Assembly: GCA_963768425.1 (NCBI GenBank)
Contig: CAVYHV010000014.1
Coordinates: 96,001-160,000, forward strand
Reading direction: 5' to 3'
Origin: Candidatus Bathyarchaeota archaeon
GTDB taxonomy: Archaea; Thermoproteota; Bathyarchaeia; Bathyarchaeales; Bathycorpusculaceae
Length of the DNA stretch: 64,000 bases
The translations under genes were made by a program, and so were the position numbers. Under the pieces are notes generated by a model, which ran no database searches, was not told the DNA's origin, and saw only the letters and a program-made list of their open reading frames with translations. Shown piece after piece: positions 14,351 to 53,428 of this stretch; the stretch's first letter is position 1; each line of letters begins with the position of its first letter.

Positions 14351-15336
14351 TTAAGGAAGGAATTGCTGGTAAACTGGGTGCGCTTTGAATCGCAAAGTAG
14401 TTTCTGATCGCTCTATGGTTCCGCTTGGCAAACGCATGCAAATTGAGTTAACAACCGCGCCGTCAGGAAGGATTCTAACACCGTCTAAGAGTTCGCCTTT
14501 CGTGACACCAGAAGCGGCAAACACCAGTTCTTTGCCTTTTGCTAATTCATCCTGATTGTATGTTTTTTTCACGTTAACGCCTGTTTTTCTTAAGCGGTCT
14601 AGGCGTTCGGCGTCGTCTTTTTTGTCCTGCCAGACTTTGGCAAGCATAGTCCCGCCCAAAATTTTTACGGCTGTCGCAGCGATCGTTGCTTCAGGTCCCG
14701 CGCCTGCCCCTATTAGCATGTCTACTCCACTATTCGGCTGACAACATACAACAGCGGCTGCAATGTCACCGTCTGGGATAAGCAATATACGCACACCAAG
14801 TTTTCGGAGTTTAGCAAGGATTTCGTTGTGTCGTTCGCGCTCAAGCATAATGACGGTGAATTTTGCCAGAGGCAAGCCTTTTTCTTTGGCCACTGTTCGT
14901 ACGAGTTCTTCAATGGACATCTCCATGGATATTTTTCCCATCGCGCAACTGTCCGCGGCGATTTTGAAGTAGTAACCATCGTCGGGTAAAACTTGGAAGC
15001 ATCCTGCGGGTGCGCAAGCCAATGCGGAGATCGCGTCTTTTCTGCCTTTGCTTGCTGCTGTTGTACCGTCAACTGGATCAACGATAAATTCAACTTTGGG
15101 TCCCAGCCTGTTCCCACTTTTTCGCGTCTTTCAAACGAGGGCGCGTGGTCTTTGGGTCCTTCACAGCAGATTACTTCGCCTTCTACATCTGTTTGAGCAA
15201 GGACAGCTCGTGAAAACTCCACGGCCTTCGCGTCAATTAAATCGCAGTCGCCTTGACCGACATGCAAAGCCGCACCGACGGCGGCTGCAACGGTTATTCT
15301 TGTTAAAGATGGGGCTAAAGCTCTAAGAGAAACCAT
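14351..15336 (-). CDS. glpX: fructose-1,6-bisphosphatase class II (1-nt frameshift near 15107)
   Basis: N-terminal ORF (CEG.KD.AP...EKVGTG) joins the DPVDGT...DGDI...GPEA...SGVT.GELL frame by adding one base. Confidence 0.85.
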
Positions 15337-17452: not shown

Positions 17453-18091
17453 CTAAAAAAAGCAGGGAATATACTCCCTAACCCTAAACTCTACGCCCAA
17501 ACCATCCGCCAACGCCTTCGCCTCCGACACATCTACTTCAGGCATCCTTATTGCCGTAGCCTCAACCTGCAAAACCGGCTTAGCGTTCCGAATAAACTCA
17601 ATAACTGCCTCGTACGCGCCATCGAAAGTCGGCTTACAAATCTGATTATATGTTTCCTTGTCTCCGGCGTTCAAGCTCACGCTTACTTTGTCAACACCCG
17701 CTGCTAGCAACTCGGCCACCAGATTTCTACACGGATTGAGCAAGTAGCCGTGCCCGTTTGTGTTTACCCGAACTTTTATTGGCCTACCGTAATGCTGTCT
17801 AACCCACGTTGCGAGTCCCAACAAAACATCAAGCCGCTCCGTCGGCTCACCGAACCCGCAGAAAACCACCTCAACCCAGTTCCGCATACCCAAAACCCCT
17901 TCAAGCTCAACTATGATTTGGCCAAGGCTAGGTTCCTCGGCGAATTTTAGGTTGAAGCCGCCAACACCACACTTAAAATTCCTAAGGCAGAAAAAGCAGC
18001 CGTTAGAGCAGCGGTTTGTGATATTCAAGTAAAGCTTATTCTCCAGCCAATATACAGCTTTGGGTTTTTCGTCTTTAGCCATCATTTCCAC
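17453..18091 (-). CDS. TatD-associated radical SAM protein
   Basis: LYLNITNRCSNGCFFC, VVFCGFGEPT, NTNGHG. Confidence 0.88.
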   Translation of the reverse strand: MEMMAKDEKPKAVYWLENKLYLNITNRCSNGCFFCLRNFKCGVGGFNLKFAEEPSLGQIIVELEGVLGMRNWVEVVFCGFGEPTERLDVLLGLATWVRQHYGRPIKVRVNTNGHGYLLNPCRNLVAELLAAGVDKVSVSLNAGDKETYNQICKPTFDGAYEAVIEFIRNAKPVLQVEATAIRMPEVDVSEAKALADGLGVEFRVREYIPCFF

Positions 18092-18117: not shown

Positions 18118-18405
18118 TTAGCCGCCTGTCATAAGCGACATTATGATTACGTTGTCCCCGTTTTTCAGTGGGGTGTTGACGCCCTGAAGCTGGTCCATTA
18201 AGACGCCGTTAACCATCGTTACGAAGGTTTGCTTCATTTCTTTTTTGGTTGGGTCATAAACTTCTTGTGTGAATGGTTTTCCGTATTTTTCGGCGACGAC
18301 ACAGAGCAGCTCCGAGAGGGGAAAAGCTTCAGCTAAGTCAAATTCATCTTGGCTTGTTCTTGTGAAGCTTTTGACTAGGCTCAGATAGTGAACTTTTACT
18401 TTCAT
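18118..18405 (-). CDS. MoaD/ThiS (SAMP) ubiquitin-like sulfur carrier
   Basis: VNG..L.NGD and C-terminal GG; divergent from AOR. Confidence 0.88.
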   Translation of the reverse strand: MKVKVHYLSLVKSFTRTSQDEFDLAEAFPLSELLCVVAEKYGKPFTQEVYDPTKKEMKQTFVTMVNGVLMDQLQGVNTPLKNGDNVIIMSLMTGG

Positions 18406-18502
18406 TTTTGACTCACTGTTAACTGAATTATGGATTGATTGTGGCGACTCATATGTTTTTTCTGCCTAAACTCGCTTTTTTTCCTGCGCGAATGTGAAAA
18501 GT

Positions 18503-18526
18503 CGTTATGTCTACCAGTTCATGACG
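18503..18526. promoter_or_regulatory. putative ModE-family operator between moaD and aor
   Basis: CGTTATG-N10-CATGACG, same architecture as the site at 53113-53136. Confidence 0.65.
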
Positions 18527-18632
18527 GCGACTTTAAAGCAACTATTTAAGTCATAGATTTCAAAATTAAAACCCATTAACTTAATATACTGTTCACAGGA
18601 GTAATTAGCTAAATTTAACGGAGGAACATTGG

Positions 18633-20489
18633 TTGCTCGGTTACGCAGGAAAGATTCTACGCGTGAATTTATCTACAGGCAAAATAGCTGTGGAAAAACT
18701 AGACGAGGAAACCGCCAAGAAATACATCGGTGGCATTGGCTTAGGCATGAAACTTTGGCTAGCCAACTCAAAAGCAGGAGTGGATGCATTTAGCCCTGAA
18801 AACCCGCTGGTTCTAGCAGTTGGACCAGTCTCAGCAACGATGTTCCCAACAGGCGGAAACGGGCACGCATTCATTTCAAAGTCACCTGAAACAGGCGCGG
18901 TCGGCGAAGCAGTGAGCCACGGTACCTTTGGGGCAGAAATAAAAAGAGCCGGCTACGACGCCATAATTTTAGTCGGGAAAGCCGAAAGACCCTCATATCT
19001 CTGGATTGACGATGAATCAGTGCAGCTGCTTGACGCAGAAAAAATCTGGGGTAAATCACCCGCTGAAACCGAAGATGCAGTTAAAGATGAACTTGGCGAC
19101 TACTATGTGCGCGTTGCATCAATAGGGTTGGCCAGGGGAAAAACAGTCTAAAATTGCCAACATAATTAATGAGAAAACCCGTGCAGCAGGGAGAACGGGG
19201 CTCGGCGCAGTTATGGGTTCAAAGAACCTTAAAGCGTTCGCTGTCCGTGGAACCAAAGACATCGTTGTAGCTAAACCCGAAGAATTTATTGAAATGGTCA
19301 AAGAGTTTCATGAAAGAATGAAGGGTCCAGCGGCACAAAAATATCGAACTTTGGGGTCGGCAGAAAACGTCATGATCCAAAACGCACTACACTGTTTGCC
19401 CACTCGCAACTACAACAACTCGTATTTTGACCACGCTGAAAGAGTAAGCGGTGAAATCCTTAACGAACGTTACATTGCAAAAATAATCGCTTGCAACTCG
19501 TGCGCAATGCGGTGCGAACATGAAGCGGTTATCCACGATGGACCCTACAAGGGAACAATGGCACGCATGGAGTACGATAACATTTGGGCTCTTGGCCGAA
19601 TTGCGGCGTGGATAAACTTGATGCAATAATCAAAGCGGCTGATCTGTGCAGCTACTACGGTTTAGATGCGACAAGCACAGGCGTTACGATTAGCTTCGTT
19701 ATGGATTGCCATGAAAAAGGCATCTTAACGCACGATGAACTCGGCGGAATAGATGCTCACTTCGGAAACGAAGTGGCACTACTGCAGCTTATCGAGAAAA
19801 TAGGCAAACGAGAGGGAATAGGCGAAATCTTGGCTGACGGAGTGAAAGTAGCCGCAGCGAAAATCGGAAAAGACTCAGACAAGCTTGCCCAAAACATCAA
19901 AGGATTAGAAGTCACAGGCTACGATTTACGATGCCTAAAAACCGCGGCTTTGGGATTTGCAGTTTCATTCCGTGGAGCTGACCACAATCGAAGCGGCGCA
20001 TACGCGTTTGACATTTCAGGCAAAGTCGACCGCCTTAAAGCTGAAAAAGGCCGAGGCAAACTTGTCAAAGACTCAGAAGACATCTACGCACTAATTGATT
20101 CGCTCATAATCTGCAAGAATGCGAGAGGCACCCTGTTCAAGGAGTTGCCGGACCTGTCGAAGCTTTACAAACTGATAACTGGGTACGAGATGACTACGCA
20201 GGAGTTGAGCCTTGCAGGCGAACGGATAAACACCCTTGCCAGACTAATCAACATCCGAGAAGGATTAAGCCGCAAAGACGACACGCTACCATGGAAAGTT
20301 ATGAACCAACCAATCTCAGACGATGGCCCAGGGAAAGGCTCAGTAGTAACCCAAGAGGAACTTGATCTGCTCCTTGACGACTATTACTTGGCACGCGGCT
20401 GGACATTGGATGGAGTACCAACAAAAGACGTTCTAACCAAGCTTGGATTGGACGATCTATCGGGTATAATTGAAGGAAAAGAGGATTAA
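18633..20489 (+). CDS. aor: tungsten aldehyde:ferredoxin oxidoreductase (frameshifts near 19132 and 19596)
   Basis: GYAGKILRVNLS, SKSP.TG, AAGRTGLGAVMGSKNLKA, C..C...C, EYD, YGLD, YY.ARGW spread over three ORFs. Confidence 0.9.
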
Positions 20490-20491
20490 GA

Positions 20492-20995
20492 ATGGTTAAA
20501 ATTCACGATAGAAAATTCGTTTCCGTCGACCCCGAAAAATGCGTAGGCTGCCAAATATGCGAATACGCTTGCTCATTCACTAAAGAAAAATGTTTCAACC
20601 CGTTGAAATCACGGATACGTGTCGTTAGGGTTAATCAAGTTGCTAACATGTCAGTCACATGCAGACTCTGCGAAGAACCAGCTTGCGTAGCAGCTTGCCC
20701 GAGAAATGCGCTTTCACAGTCAGAAGATACTGGGAACATTGTTCTTGACAAAGACAAATGCAACGGTTGCGGATGGTGCATCGAAGCATGTGACTACGGC
20801 GCAATAATGCTGCATCCAGAAACCAAAGTAGTCTACGTCTGCGACCTCTGCAAAGACAAACCCGACGGACCCCAATGCGTCAAATGGTGCCCAGAAGAAG
20901 CATTAACTCTTGTCACAAGCGATGTGCTAGCCCAAAAAGCAAGAATTAGCGCAATTAAGAAGCTGTTCCAAGAGTCAAAAGAAAAAATAAGCTAA
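20492..20995 (+). CDS. 4x[4Fe-4S] dicluster protein (AOR electron-transfer partner)
   Basis: Four Cys clusters: CVGCQICEYAC, CRLC..PAC...CP, CNGCGWC...C, CDLC...C...CP. Confidence 0.9.
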   Translation: MVKIHDRKFVSVDPEKCVGCQICEYACSFTKEKCFNPLKSRIRVVRVNQVANMSVTCRLCEEPACVAACPRNALSQSEDTGNIVLDKDKCNGCGWCIEACDYGAIMLHPETKVVYVCDLCKDKPDGPQCVKWCPEEALTLVTSDVLAQKARISAIKKLFQESKEKIS

Positions 20996-48514: not shown

Positions 48515-48678
48515 GTCATCGGTCGTTTCCGAAGGATTATGATGCGGTTATACGAATGCGACCGGTAAGCATCAAAAGGAATGCGGAAAAAGTGCTCGGG
48601 AAGTTGTGTTTTGAGGGAAAAGTTTAAGGGTTAAAGTAAGTTATGGTTTGCCGTATTCCTGATCTTGAGGTTTATAGT

Positions 48679-49236
48679 TTGGCAACTAAACTTGGAACAA
48701 TTGAAGAACGCAAGGCAGAAGTCCTGATTAAACTCCGAAAATACAAGCTTATTGAAAAAGAAGCAGGCAAGTATGAAGGCGCAGTAGCATACATAATTGA
48801 TATTCCGCAGGACAAAGAAAAAGCATTAATCTGGTGTATTTTAGGCGAAGCAACCGTAGGCATAGCCGCAATGAATACCCTGTACAAAGTGATGAAAGAA
48901 AAAGAAATTGACCGCGCAATAGTCGTCACCGAAGGACGTTACACCCATGCCGTGAAGCTTGGTGCAAAAAAGAAGCAGGTTGAACTGCTACCCAAGTCTT
49001 TCCCAGTTTTCGACATTTTCGAACATGCACTTGTGCCGCTGCATGAAATCCTAAGTGAAAAAGAAAGAACCCAGCTTCTGACACAATACAAAGTTAAGCC
49101 CTACCAGATGCCACAAATAAAATCAGGCGACCCTGCAGTCAAAGCGATAGGCGCAAAACCAGGCGACGTGCTTAAAATCACGAGAAAAAGCACTACCGCT
49201 GGCGAACACATCACCTACAGATACGTGGTAGAGTAA
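48679..49236 (+). CDS. rpo5: RNA polymerase subunit H (Rpo5/RPB5) with N-terminal restriction-endonuclease-like domain
   Basis: C-terminal [16 protein letters not shown]...[31 protein letters not shown]; about 110 extra N-terminal aa. Confidence 0.9.
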
Positions 49237-49331: not shown

Positions 49332-49889
49332 TTATTTGGCGATCATTACTTCTGTTGACTTTACGATTGCTTCTACTTCGTCGCCTACCTTGATGTCTAA
49401 GTCCTCAACTGCATCCTTAGTTATGACGGCGGTAACAATTACGGGCATTTTTACTTCAACCTTCACTTTAGCGGTAATGACGCCTTTTTCAACGGCTACA
49501 ACTTTCCCTTTAAAACGGTTTCTTGCACTCAACTTCAAACTTTTCACCTCCACTTTTGCTGAATTAGACAAAACAGTTCCCAAATAGCTCTCAACCTGCT
49601 TATACTCAACCAGCAAACTTCGCCCTAAATCCGTCAGCTTCGCGCCGCCGCCCCCAGACTTGCCGCCCTTGTATGTTTCCAATATTGGCTGCTCAATTGT
49701 GTCCTGAATTTCTTGTAAGTAATTCCAAACGTAACGATAGGACATGCTCAAGCTTTCGGCCGCTTTTGAAATAGAGTTTTCTTTATCTACAGCTTCTAGA
49801 ATTTCTGCGCCGCCTTTGCCAATCAAAGGCTTGTCTTTGTATTCCAACCAAACTTTGCATGAGAGCTTATGTTTTTTGTCAGTTGACAT
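49332..49889 (-). CDS. modE: ModE-family regulator (wHTH + TOBE)
   Basis: SISKAA..L.MSYR..W, GGKSGGGAKLT, SARN, TAVIT...DL..GD.V.A.VKS. Confidence 0.9.
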   Translation of the reverse strand: MSTDKKHKLSCKVWLEYKDKPLIGKGGAEILEAVDKENSISKAAESLSMSYRYVWNYLQEIQDTIEQPILETYKGGKSGGGGAKLTDLGRSLLVEYKQVESYLGTVLSNSAKVEVKSLKLSARNRFKGKVVAVEKGVITAKVKVEVKMPVIVTAVITKDAVEDLDIKVGDEVEAIVKSTEVMIAK

Positions 49890-50190: not shown

Positions 50191-50907
50191 TCAAAATTCT
50201 AATTCTCCGCTGATGAATTTGCGTGATATCTCGCTTTTCGGGTTTTCAAAGAAGTCTGTGGGTTTAGCGACCTCCACTATTTTGCCGTTGTAGATATGGA
50301 CTATTTCATCCGCAAGTCTTCTTGCCTGAGTGAGGTCATGGGTCGCCATAACTATAATGCGTTGAGCATCTTTCCGGTTTACTATGGCTTTCTCGATGAT
50401 GACGGAGTTGTTCGGGTCCAAATTGGCTGTCGGCTCGTCTAAAAGCAGAACATGGGGTTCAATCAGGAAAGCTCTGGCTAAAGCGATTCTTTGTTGTTCT
50501 CCACCCGAAGTCTTTTTTGCTCTGCGTTTTTCAAATCCTGAAAGCCTCACCGCTTGTAAAGCGTCAGCCACTTTTTTTGTGATTTGATCTTTTGGCACTT
50601 TCCTTATGCGCAAGCCATATACTAAGTTTGAGAAAACATTTGTGCTAAACATTACACTCTTCTGGAACACCAGAGTGGAAACTTTACGTAAAGCTTTGCA
50701 TTCGATAGGTTGATTATTGAAAAACAGTTTTCCAGCGTCGGCGTTTTCTAAGCCAGCCATAATCCGCATAAGTGTAGTTTTGCCTGCTCCGTTAACACCT
50801 AAAAGGACAATTATTTTGCCGCCCTGCAGATCTAGCGAAACTGAATGCAGAGCCTTTACGGCTCGATAGCTCTTCTTGACATCTACCAGCTGAAGACGGG
50901 CACTCAC
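50191..50907 (-). CDS. tupC: tungstate ABC transporter ATP-binding protein
   Basis: GVNGAGKT, SGGEQQR, LDEPTANLD; operon context. Confidence 0.85.
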   Translation of the reverse strand: MSARLQLVDVKKSYRAVKALHSVSLDLQGGKIIVLLGVNGAGKTTLMRIMAGLENADAGKLFFNNQPIECKALRKVSTLVFQKSVMFSTNVFSNLVYGLRIRKVPKDQITKKVADALQAVRLSGFEKRRAKKTSGGEQQRIALARAFLIEPHVLLLDEPTANLDPNNSVIIEKAIVNRKDAQRIIVMATHDLTQARRLADEIVHIYNGKIVEVAKPTDFFENPKSEISRKFISGELEF

Positions 50908-50910
50908 GTT

Positions 50911-51657
50911 TTAACCTCCACCTAAACCTCGCCAAAAGGACATTTTACCCCATAATCCCTCTTCTTGCCTGACCCGCTCTACGAGGCTTATCGTCAAAGC
51001 TAAAACGATCACTATTGCCATAAGCAATATCGCGTATGCCATGGCGACGTCGAAGTTTCCGAAGTCTATTTCCGTTGCAATAGCAGTGGTTAAAACTCTT
51101 GTTTCTCCAAGCAAGTTTCCGCCTACGATTGTTGCTATACCTAATTCGCCAAAACCTCTGTTAAAAGACGCAGTTATGGAAAGCACCATTGACCACACAG
51201 TTTCCCGAATAAGTGTTAGGTTCGTTCTGAACCCTGACGCACCAAGGGTTTTAGCTAAATCTCTTAGTTGAGTATCAGCTGTGCCCAGCGCGTTAGCGGT
51301 GAAACTTACTATGATAGGGGTAACCAAAATGGCTTCGCCGATTGCGATTCCATTTAGAGTGTAAAGCAAACGTAAAGAACCAAATTCACCATTCCTAATA
51401 AATAACAAAAACAAAAGTAATCCCAGCGCAACCGTCGGTATCCCTATTAACGCATTAAAGACGCCTTTGACGAACCATTTTCCCCTGAAATTGTATAAGC
51501 CTAAAGCTACAGCTATTGGAATACTCCATATGCAAGACAGTAGTGTTCCTAAACCCGCGACGTAAATTGATCTATAGACTGTTGAGTAAACTTCAGGATT
51601 GCCACTTATGATCAAGTTGATAGCTTGCTGAAAGGCTTTTACGATTATATCAGCCAT
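50911..51657 (-). CDS. tupB: tungstate ABC transporter permease
   Basis: IPTVALGL, G.L.LLYT, F.R...ELG...IVGGN....TRVLTTAI. Confidence 0.88.
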   Translation of the reverse strand: MADIIVKAFQQAINLIISGNPEVYSTVYRSIYVAGLGTLLSCIWSIPIAVALGLYNFRGKWFVKGVFNALIGIPTVALGLLLFLLFIRNGEFGSLRLLYTLNGIAIGEAILVTPIIVSFTANALGTADTQLRDLAKTLGASGFRTNLTLIRETVWSMVLSITASFNRGFGELGIATIVGGNLLGETRVLTTAIATEIDFGNFDVAMAYAILLMAIVIVLALTISLVERVRQEEGLWGKMSFWRGLGGG

Positions 51658-51705: not shown

Positions 51706-53097
51706 TTATTCTTCGGTTATTTTACCGCCGCTTTGAGTGTAGTTTATCGGTTGAGTCATAACAGGTTTTTGGCTGTCAGCGAAAATATAATTTGCGTAGT
51801 TCAGCGAAGAACTGGGTTCCATGTTTGCCATTTGTACATCGTACGATGAAGTGTACAGGTTGCCTGCCTCGTATCGGTACTGTGGTGGGCATTCGGTACC
51901 ATTAGCGTTGATCACGGGAACTGAATTTATGTAAGCATAGCTTTGGATCCAACTGTATAACGTGGAGTTAGATGAAGGGTTGTTTGCTAAAGGCACAAAT
52001 GGGTTAAACAATGTCTGATTATAGCTCGCTACTCCATAGTTCGTAATTACCTGTTGACCTGCAGTGGAAACTAGCCAGTTGACAAAAGTCATCGAAGCAT
52101 TAAAGTTTGTATTCGCCAAGTTGGCGTTTTGTGGGTTGTCAATTATTGCGCTGTACACATTAAGAAGCGATTGTTGACCTTGAATCTGGATTTGGAGTTG
52201 TATATCTCCATCGTCATGGTATGCGTAGTATGTTCCCGTATCTGAAAGTGTATATCCGCCGATGTTGCCATAATAGTTGGCTGCTAGCAGAGTCGGTCCC
52301 ATGCCTGTGCCGGTAGCTTTGAACCACGGTAGAGTAAGAAGTTGAGTATAGTTGCTGAAGCCTGCGGCCTTCCAAAGAGCAATCTCTTTAGTATTTGTCC
52401 CAGAAGCATCGTCCCTTGAGAACCAAAGCACATTGCTTCCTGGGGTTTGTGCTGCGTTGTAGATATCTATCATCGCTTGGGTAACGTTAGTCATGCCGTT
52501 AATGTGTGCAGGGTCACTTGCTGGACCGACTATGACGAAGAAGTTATAAGCTACGATTTTTCGGTCTACGCCGTAACCGTCTGTTAAGAATGGCAGTTCC
52601 TGTGATGGAGAGTGGACCAGTAGCATGTCTGCTGAGCCTGACTCTGCATCAGTAATGGCAACGCCGGTTCCTACGGCAACGAAGTTAACTGTAATCCACG
52701 GATATGTTGCCTGGAAAGAATCTTTGATGTCGTCTTTAATTGTAGTTCCATTGGCCAAAACTTCTGGTTGGTCTTCAAGTCCTGTATCATAAAGGCTTGT
52801 GGTTGTTGCAACTGTTAACGTAGTCGGGCTAGGGGTCGGTGTTGGAGATGGAGTGGGAGATGGCGTGGGAGTTGGGCTTGAAGTCGGCGAAGCTGTTGCG
52901 GTTGGTGAGGGCGTTGCAGTTGTTTTGGGCGATGAGGTTGGGGTAGGTTTAGGTGTTGCTGTAGGCGTAGGTGTTGGCGTTGGTGTAGGCTTAGTGGAGG
53001 AACCTGAGTAAGATATGTAACCGAAAACTCCAACTATTATGATGACGATTACTACGATTGCTGCGATAATTACATAAATGCTTTTCATTTTTTTCAC
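51706..53097 (-). CDS. tupA: tungstate-binding protein with Pro/Thr linker
   Basis: [11 protein letters not shown] signature, GTG.A, VHSP, N.F..VGP..DPA, SRDD.SGT..KE. Confidence 0.88.
52824..52990 (-). repeat. Pro-Thr/Ser coding low-complexity linker in TupA
   Basis: [21 protein letters not shown]...SPTPTPSPT. Confidence 0.85.
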
Positions 53098-53112: not shown

Positions 53113-53136
53113 CGATATGCTTATTTAAACATAACG
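53113..53136. promoter_or_regulatory. putative ModE-family operator overlapping the tupA TATA box
   Basis: CGATATG-N10-CATAACG; the spacer contains TTTAAATA on the minus strand. Confidence 0.7.
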
Positions 53137-53203: not shown

Positions 53204-53428
53204 CTAAACGGGCAGCTTTCGTTCTTCCAGCAACTCGCCGAGAATTACCAATGCTTCTGCAAGCGGCATCCCAAGTCTTTCAGCCAACTCAGACGCGGTC
53301 ACATCTGCTTTCTGCGGCAAAATGCTCGAGCGGGTGTAAGCTTTATGGGTTGGGTACATTACTGAAGCGTGAATGGCTTCGACAAGCAACTGCCAAAGCC
53401 GATCTTTTGTGTACTCTTCGGGATTCAT
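53204..53428 (-). CDS. small hypothetical protein (HTH-like C-terminus)
   Basis: 74 aa; VTASELAERLGMPLAEAL. Confidence 0.6.
   Translation of the reverse strand: MNPEEYTKDRLWQLLVEAIHASVMYPTHKAYTRSSILPQKADVTASELAERLGMPLAEALVILGELLEERKLPV

Follow-up and report, generated by a model that had tools for sequence, protein, structure and literature searches.

Is the gene of a tungsten enzyme, aor, controlled by the same regulator as the genes for tungstate uptake? The question is raised by two similar 24-bp palindromes in a 64,000-nucleotide stretch of DNA from a soil-dwelling Candidatus Bathyarchaeota archaeon (assembly GCA_963768425.1, contig CAVYHV010000014.1, positions 96,001 to 160,000 of the forward strand), here called the window, to whose numbering all coordinates refer unless a contig is named. 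One palindrome precedes aor, a gene of the aldehyde:ferredoxin oxidoreductase (AOR) family, and the other precedes tupA, the first gene of a Tup-like transporter cluster. An earlier note on this DNA had joined the two in a candidate tungsten regulon, in which one oxyanion sensor could switch AOR on while switching uptake off. The window sequence contains both strings where the note had placed them, and a ModE-like gene completes the set:

18503 to 18526, no strand assigned: ModE-type box at aor, CGTTATG-N10-CATGACG (CGTTATGTCTACCAGTTCATGACG), between two divergent putative promoters
53113 to 53136, no strand assigned: ModE-type box at tupA, on the plus strand CGATATG-N10-CATAACG (CGATATGCTTATTTAAACATAACG), on the minus strand CGTTATG-TTTAAATAAG-CATATCG
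49332 to 49889, minus strand: ModE-like regulator of 185 amino acids (aa), with a ModE-type winged helix and one Mop/TOBE domain

The aor box is located within a 227-bp gap between two divergent gene sets, and the tupA box stands 24 nt before the ATG at 53088. Based on position and conservation, we consider it highly probable that the sites are ModE-type operators. The overall explanation that we favour, and regard as on balance likely, is that both palindromes are operators of the ModE-like regulator at 49332 to 49889, with tup being repressed and the aor site being modulatory.

Conservation and distribution of the palindromes

The aor orthologues were taken from 40 related genomes, and the best match to the palindrome was sought within 330 nt upstream; 27 genomes were assessable for the aor box (G017, G036 and G035 were not). 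A box with at most two mismatches is found at −128 to −132 from the start codon in 12 of these 27, which are congeneric: the genome of the window (G000; 2,958,400 bases in 33 contigs) and 11 relatives, out of the 12 whose aor is most similar (C-terminal part 78–85% identical). In the remaining 15 genomes the best match has four or more mismatches, and its positions are scattered. G011 also carries an aor box according to the motif scan described below. Among public aor loci of Bathyarchaeia, the box is present at −126 to −134 in 37 of 80 when three mismatches are allowed, in 32 with at most two and in 24 with at most one. Across 43 distinct aor boxes, positions 0, 1, 3, 5, 19, 22 and 23 are invariant, so that the outer C and G of the 24-mer do not change among them, and the spacer varies freely. 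None of the seven half-site pairs shows a compensatory double change in these 43 boxes.

At tupA, a box-like palindrome around a TATA-like spacer was found 14–50 nt before the ATG in all eight same-genus loci. Four of the eight match a strict expression, and the others, read by eye, are one to three letters off; the spacers of the orthologous boxes are of the TTTAAATA or TTTATATA type.

With at most one mismatch allowed, a scan of 41 genomes returned 23 sites in 19 genomes, versus 10 for the reversed pattern. Nine of the sites lie at aor, nine at molybdenum/tungsten (Mo/W) transporter or modE promoters, and five elsewhere (three in or at the ends of unrelated genes, two intergenic), a number which fits the control rate. 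The transporter and modE sites belong to Tup-like transporters (G000, G003, G029, G030), to the gap between modE and tupA (G025), to a ModA-like/modE locus (G037), to a Peripla_BP_2-FecCD-ABC-modE operon (G004) and to a helix-turn-helix-only (HTH-only) ModE paralogue with a ModA-like transporter (G012, G002). One near-perfect box with a TATA-like spacer is situated on contig C3 of G001 (position 882428, locus L080), 22 nt before a cluster of three genes (230, 259 and 185 aa) which have weak matches only, to the TiaS TCKD domain and to an ABC_cobalt permease component; this box may be a further member of the regulon or a chance site.

Starting from the regulator instead, we found 41 public loci with a ModE-like protein. 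In 28 of them a box with at most two mismatches heads the transporter operon, 2.9–3.8 kb upstream of modE; 12 have no box at this threshold and one has a stray match. In at least 22 of the 41, a box with at most three mismatches lies 13–43 nt before the ATG of a long open reading frame (ORF), the count being a lower bound since several ORFs are broken or begin at an ATG inside the box.

Within the genome of the window itself, the expression CGWTATG-N10-CATNWCG gives three matches but two sites in the window, as the palindrome at tup is hit once on either strand. The same expression has no other site in the whole 2.96-Mb genome, and the relaxed forms CGWTAT-N12-ATNWCG and CGNTATG-N10-CATNNCG also find just these two. 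When at most one mismatch to CGTTATG-N10-CATAACG is allowed, two sites appear at a gap of 10, versus 0, 0, 1 and 1 at gaps of 8, 9, 11 and 12. Six sites in the genome have exactly two mismatches, two of them inside ORFs and four between ORFs. Of the other three AOR-family genes, only aor2 (contig C6) has a related site, with three mismatches.

The earlier note had named a genome-wide scan, enrichment at Mo/W genes and phylogenetic footprinting as ways to check its proposal. The pattern matches solely the aor and tupA sites, 18 of the 23 near-perfect sites stand at aor or transporter/modE promoters, and the motif is conserved in the orthologous aor and tupA promoters. Conservation and enrichment in related genomes thus make the two palindromes one conserved motif class.

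Position of the boxes relative to the promoters

The two boxes are placed very differently with respect to the predicted core promoters. These and the other elements between the divergent genes are as follows:

53122 to 53129, minus strand: TATA box of tupA, TTTAAATA, inside the box spacer
18572 to 18588, plus strand: predicted B recognition element (BRE) and TATA of aor, consensus AACCCATTAAsTTAATATA, with the TATA at 18581 to 18588; the most conserved intergenic block
18549 to 18567, plus strand: second conserved block, consensus AgCC.TGaATTT.cAAA, directly upstream of the aor BRE
18446 to 18463, minus strand: conserved block, plus-strand consensus TCTsATATcTtTTTTCt; its start precedes that of the box by 54–58 nt in 43 of 44 promoters
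18620 to 18624, plus strand: conserved ribosome-binding site GGAGG, 8 nt upstream of the TTG start codon of aor

The tupA box has the TATA element as its spacer, and its upstream half-site covers the BRE position; occupancy of the box should exclude TBP/TFB. In nine loci, from other families of the order and from a more distant same-genus paralogue, the start codon is preceded by the box or its right half, with a TATA-like element farther upstream, and the ModE gene is often divergent there. Repression at tup by the bound regulator is, from this geometry, likely.

Other transporter operons carry the box as well. An HTH-only ModE paralogue of approximately 110–118 aa, without TOBE, precedes a ModA-like (SBP_bac_11) ABC transporter in G000 (C12:46514–47263, locus L082), G012 (L075) and G002 (L081). 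In G012 and G002, the box directly follows a TATAAAA element, approximately 100 nt before the paralogue and the ModA-like operon, which is the position expected of a repressor site. No box was found at the corresponding locus of G000, where the transporter genes look fragmented. In G004 (contig C10, L083), the ModE orthologue follows a Peripla_BP_2-FecCD-ABC transporter rather than Tup, and a box stands 13 nt before the binding-protein gene of that operon. This transporter may belong to the type II (MolABC-like) Mo/W importers and be controlled by ModE.

At aor, an alignment of 38 unique promoters revealed four discrete conserved blocks in otherwise diverged DNA: 18446 to 18463, the half-sites of the box, 18549 to 18567, and 18572 to 18588. 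We read the last as BRE and TATA, presumably correctly, as it resembles the archaeal promoter consensus; its TATA lies 51–55 nt before the start codon. The distance from the start of the box to the TATA (TTAATATA) is 76–79 bp in all 44 aor promoters, and this spacing is fixed although the DNA between the elements has diverged. The centre of the box is approximately 70 bp from that of the aor TATA and approximately 60 bp from the likely promoter on the MoaD side, for which the block at 18446 to 18463 is the candidate (that is, for the divergent MoaD-family and radical-SAM genes). No conserved TATA adjoins the aor box in the alignments of congeneric and public promoters. The box is therefore found where an upstream site would be, ahead of BRE/TATA and at a constrained distance. 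The block at 18549 to 18567 is common to the promoters of aor (aor1) and its paralogue aor2 and occurs in several relatives lacking the box, and is therefore independent of ModE.

The earlier note had placed the box upstream of TATA-like elements. This is borne out by the conserved BRE/TATA; of the two elements it listed, 18581 to 18588 is conserved and 18532 to 18549 is not. The latter was rejected as a TATA-like element on both strands, including as a minus-strand promoter of the MoaD-family gene, an arrangement in which the box would cover a transcript start of that gene. A longer inverted repeat flanking the aor box in G000 (AAAGTCG...CGACTTT) was also dropped, because the flanks are not conserved.

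A ModE-like regulator at the end of the tup cluster

The gene at 49332 to 49889 follows tupA, the permease and the ATPase genes on the minus strand after a gap of 301 bp, and the claim that modE lies at the end of the tup cluster thus holds. The N-terminal part of its product matches Pfam HTH_1 (29.8 bits, above the cut-off of 26.6) and TIGR00637 (E-value 8e-22), and aligns with PDB 2ijl (E-value 1.1e-11) and with E. coli ModE 1b9m (E-value 4.5e-8, residues 29–150). The C-terminal part matches Pfam TOBE (50.5 bits, cut-off 22.3) and TIGR00638 (67.9 bits, cut-off 55), and an alignment to ModG 1h9j shows the SARN motif and the C-terminal Lys. The 185-aa protein is the sole TOBE match found in the genome. 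With a single TOBE, it scores 60.7 bits in the model of full-length bacterial ModE (NF007957), whose cut-off is 369, and so falls into the single-Mop "ModE-like" architecture rather than the two-Mop bacterial equivalog.

ModE of Methanosarcina acetivorans, which has a single Mop as well, requires RTTATGT-N8-RCATAAY for binding in electrophoretic mobility shift assays (EMSA), according to the available text of PMC12327845. The tup site (minus strand) agrees with this motif at 13 of 14 specified positions and the aor site at 12 of 14, both in the same register; each of the 24-mers described here extends that motif by one base at either end.

In related genomes, the regulator gene stands beside or divergent to Tup-like, ModA-like or Peripla_BP_2/FecCD transporters. 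Full-length ModE orthologues (72–87% identity) are present in 12 of 24 same-genus genomes, and the aor box and a full-length orthologue occur together in 12 genomes. All genomes with an aor box have the orthologue except G020, whose box is degenerate and whose ModE gene is seen as a fragment where a contig ends; in G022 the orthologue is present and the aor box is not. Approximately nine same-genus genomes are without both, among them G005 and G008, which have more distant ModE relatives (46% and 61%).

Proposed regulation of tup and aor

At tupA, the regulator, probably as a dimer and presumably loaded with tungstate or molybdate, would occupy the box around the TATA and keep TBP/TFB off, by which tungstate uptake would be shut down. 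At aor, the box is too distant to occlude either core promoter from its place and would most likely act from upstream to modulate aor, the divergent genes or both. For aor we favour activation when the oxyanion is available, giving it at most an even chance; this would parallel the dual regulation by E. coli ModE, which represses uptake and activates molybdenum cofactor (Moco) biosynthesis (PMC12327845). Binding by the 185-aa protein, its effector and the sign at aor are points which we infer from sequence. Tup and AOR point to tungstate as the effector.

More tentatively, the locus might hold the first archaeal ModE to act as an activator: loaded ModE, sitting 76–79 bp upstream of the TATA, would turn on the tungsten aor and perhaps also the MoaD/radical-SAM genes, and the same protein would block the uptake promoter on its TATA. 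Such a circuit of one sensor and two signs would have evolved in Bathyarchaeia by the addition of a box to an older promoter.

A number of observations weigh against the favoured explanation. The 100 shuffles of the window gave 0.00 matches, a figure that overstates significance since the pattern was built from the two sites; in the reversed genome, one site with at most one mismatch was found versus two real ones, and 7 and 68 sites with exactly two and three mismatches versus 6 and 57. The motif count in this single genome is no better than in the controls, and the sequence alone does not stand beyond chance; it is therefore position and conservation that carry the case. In 32 of 43 boxes, the right half-site at aor reads CATGACG, and the asymmetry that this brings is itself conserved. 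Shared descent confounds the co-occurrence of box and ModE, as those genomes that carry the box are also the nearest relatives. As to the regulator, its N-terminal domain remains below the NCBIfam cut-off of TIGR00637 (77.2 versus 98.5 bits), and the genome encodes a second, HTH-only ModE paralogue (C12:46514–46813; TIGR00637 4.2e-14). The M. acetivorans protein, the sole archaeal ModE tested, is a repressor with sites 160–633 bp from start codons, and molybdate left its DNA binding unchanged in vitro (PMC12327845, available text). Tungstate is not the sole candidate signal, as the genome contains putative Mo enzymes (one MoCoBD_1 and two Oxidored_molyb genes) as well as a ModA-like transporter; no gene of the dimethyl sulfoxide reductase family was found in this assembly, which is 91% complete. 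Relatives lacking the box retain the same near-consensus BRE/TATA before aor, and therefore the aor promoter probably works without an activator. Finally, four RNA-library runs yielded contigs of close relatives (90–99% alike) that cover parts of aor and of the MoaD/radical-SAM genes, with 18363 to 18576 uncovered; these contigs show neither transcript starts nor levels.

Could the aor site instead be negative? The boxes would then still be ModE operators, and the one at aor would lower transcription of aor, of the MoaD/radical-SAM genes or of both, through cooperation with a block on the BRE side or through oligomerisation. We regard this as unlikely. It has a precedent in M. acetivorans ModE, which represses anf and vnf from its distant sites (160–633 bp) and gives two shifted species in EMSA (PMC12327845). 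The block at 18549 to 18567, which begins with a CATGA-like half-site approximately 32 bp from the right half of the box, would provide a partner site, and the strong BRE/TATA of the box-less relatives suggests that no activator is needed. However, a site 76–79 bp upstream of the TATA cannot occlude TBP/TFB, and in the cases where repression is expected (tup, ModA-like operon) the same lineage has the box on the TATA or immediately behind it. The block also occurs where neither box nor ModE orthologue was found, and it is not obvious why a tungstoenzyme should be repressed along with tungstate uptake.

Still less probable is a real motif with another binder, either the HTH-only paralogue or the product of a 74-aa ORF located before tupA (53204 to 53428, minus strand). 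The paralogue shares the ModE-type domain and is itself preceded by a box in G012 and G002, and the ORF is conserved and has weak HTH matches (IclR-type, 0.0048). Yet neither candidate has a sensor domain, the matches of the ORF lie under every cut-off, and across families it is the full-length ModE-like gene that is linked to box-headed transporters. Moreover, the validated M. acetivorans protein consists of an HTH and one Mop (PMC12327845).

A chance match, a palindrome devoid of regulatory role or an RNA hairpin is very improbable: the two real sites versus one in the reversed genome would permit the first, and the T:G departure at pair 3/20 could still wobble-pair in the last, but the fixed position, near-invariant half-sites and free spacers across dozens of genomes, the 18 of 23 sites at aor or transporter/modE promoters, the lack of compensatory double changes and the use of the tup spacer as TATA box speak against all of them. 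Chance was rejected on conservation and enrichment, not on the single-genome counts. An RNA element or terminator was rejected, with no Rfam match (the best hit, at an E-value of 0.82, being an unrelated long non-coding RNA), no terminator-like site and half-site changes that are one-sided.

Genes of the two loci and the aor2 promoter

Profile searches support the gene assignments of the earlier note, that is, aor with a divergent MoaD-family gene and a Tup-like transporter:

18633 to 20489, plus strand: aor, aldehyde:ferredoxin oxidoreductase family (Pfam AFOR_N 3.4e-51; AFOR_C 4.3e-20 and 9.9e-92)
20492 to 20995, plus strand: 4Fe-4S dicluster protein 3′ of aor (Pfam Fer4_11 5.9e-15)
18118 to 18405, minus strand: MoaD/ThiS-family gene, divergent from aor (Pfam ThiS 2.8e-6)
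17453 to 18091, minus strand: radical SAM gene, 3′ of the MoaD-family gene (Pfam Radical_SAM 2e-14)
51706 to 53088, minus strand: tupA-like substrate-binding protein with a signal anchor and a Thr/Pro linker (Pfam PBP_like_2 1.3e-23)
50911 to 51657, minus strand: tupB-like permease (NCBIfam TupB 4.3e-43, 147.7 bits, below the cut-off of 320)
50191 to 50907, minus strand: tupC-like ABC ATPase (Pfam ABC_tran 3.7e-32)

The MoaD-family gene scores 40.5 bits with NCBIfam moaD_arch (cut-off 49.5), and the tupA-like protein 144 bits with NCBIfam TupA (5.1e-42; cut-off 400), each below the respective threshold. The best score of the radical SAM gene, 205 bits and above the cut-off, is to TIGR04038 (TatD-associated radical SAM family); its match to the tungsten-cofactor maturase model TIGR04317 is weak (51.5 of 380 bits).

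The reading frame of aor, which begins with TTG, is read as three ORF pieces (18633 to 19151, 19213 to 19629 and 19584 to 20489). In the RNA-library contigs, which come from close relatives, the GGGGAAAAAA run at 19134 is one base shorter than in the window, and there is one C more after 19595 (CCC versus CC). The frame breaks coincide with these differences in homopolymer length, and the aor of the relatives would be one frame. The gene glpX (FBPase; 14351 to 15336) is split into two overlapping ORFs. As other genes in the window also look frameshifted, assembly indel errors are as likely as a true aor pseudogene; this suggests that the breaks in aor and glpX are such errors rather than gene decay.

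The 74-aa ORF ends approximately 67 nt before the tup box and is kept before tupA in those same-genus loci that reach far enough (...ELAERLGMPLgEAlvIL...). Its winged-helix matches are all sub-threshold (HTH_IclR, E-value 0.0048), and its product may be a small DNA-binding protein. The modE-like gene is adjoined by a gene for RNA polymerase subunit H (48643 to 49236, plus strand; Rpb5 C-terminal domain 4.5e-30) with an N-terminal restriction-endonuclease-like domain (Mrr_cat 2.9e-6, NA-iREase1 4.7e-7).

The second AOR paralogue, aor2, is 52–55% identical and lies outside the window (in G000 on contig C6, approximately 113670–113797; loci L244–L255). Its promoter is homologous to that of aor1, with the same BRE/TATA and the same CCGTGAATTTTTAAA-like block. 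A conserved half-box at −124 to −134, with the left CGTTrTG kept and the right half reading CArGwCG, was seen in 13 of 13 genomes examined. These include G021 and G022; no aor1 box was found in G022, and the promoter compared in G021 was that of aor2. Either ModE, weakly, or another factor could bind the half-box.

Comparison with known systems

Bathyarchaeia are abundant, uncultured archaea of soils and sediments, and we know of almost nothing on their gene regulation. The locus offers a concrete, testable candidate pair of regulator and operator with a well-resolved footprint, and ties a tungsten enzyme, AOR, to a predicted ModE regulon. As a DNA motif, the box passes every test open to sequence analysis. 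Relatives with the same aor promoter and no box form a natural comparison set for the question of activation by archaeal ModE. If the aor site merely represses or is neutral, the finding would be an ordinary extension of a known regulon.

The first prediction of archaeal ModE sites was reportedly made by Studholme and Pau in 2003. In titles and the opening parts of abstracts, no literature linking ModE to AOR in archaea was found, and the link may already have been predicted in that study. The word aldehyde is absent from the available text of PMC12327845.

The closest known system is ModE of M. acetivorans (PMC12327845, available text). It is likewise archaeal, combines a winged helix with a single Mop/TOBE domain, and is encoded 3′ of a Mo/W ABC transporter. 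Its motif has the same palindrome register and nearly identical letters, and its sites are likewise found ahead of genes for transporters, for a radical-SAM protein and for a pterin enzyme, in its case Fmd. In contrast, the present system belongs to another phylum, nitrogenase targets were not seen, the box stands at the gene of a tungsten AOR, beside divergent MoaD/radical-SAM genes, the first C and last G of the 24-mer are invariant, and the regulator is predicted from sequence. An activator role of the M. acetivorans protein was left open by its authors (PMC12327845, available text).

The bacterial ModE of E. coli (PDB 1b9m, 1o7l) aligns with the N-terminal domain of our regulator, and its logic of uptake down and Moco biosynthesis up (PMC12327845) is paralleled here, where a MoaD-family gene and the gene of a pterin enzyme have a box ahead of them. 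It differs in having two Mop domains and approximately 260 aa, versus one and 185 aa here, and in the bacterial promoter machinery. TaoR of Desulfovibrio alaskensis (Rajeev et al. 2019, as cited in PMC12327845 and PMC11980592) is reported to be a single tungstate-responsive regulator of tungsten aldehyde oxidoreductase and of Mo/W transport, which is the very logic that the earlier note had proposed, one sensor turning the tungsten AOR on and transport off. However, TaoR is bacterial and of unrelated architecture, with HTH-17 and PBP-like domains (PMC11980592).

The arrangement of the boxes resembles that of other archaeal regulators. As in those, the box lies over or after the TATA at the transporter operons and upstream of BRE/TATA at aor. 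For regulators such as SurR, TrmBL1 and Ptr2, sites ahead of BRE/TATA bring activation, and sites on it or beyond it bring repression. Their usual activator sites are directly beside the BRE, whereas the centre of the aor box, approximately 70 bp from that of the TATA, is farther away. Taken together, the system appears to be a ModE regulon of an already known motif class, which the operator pair at aor and tupA would extend to Bathyarchaeia.

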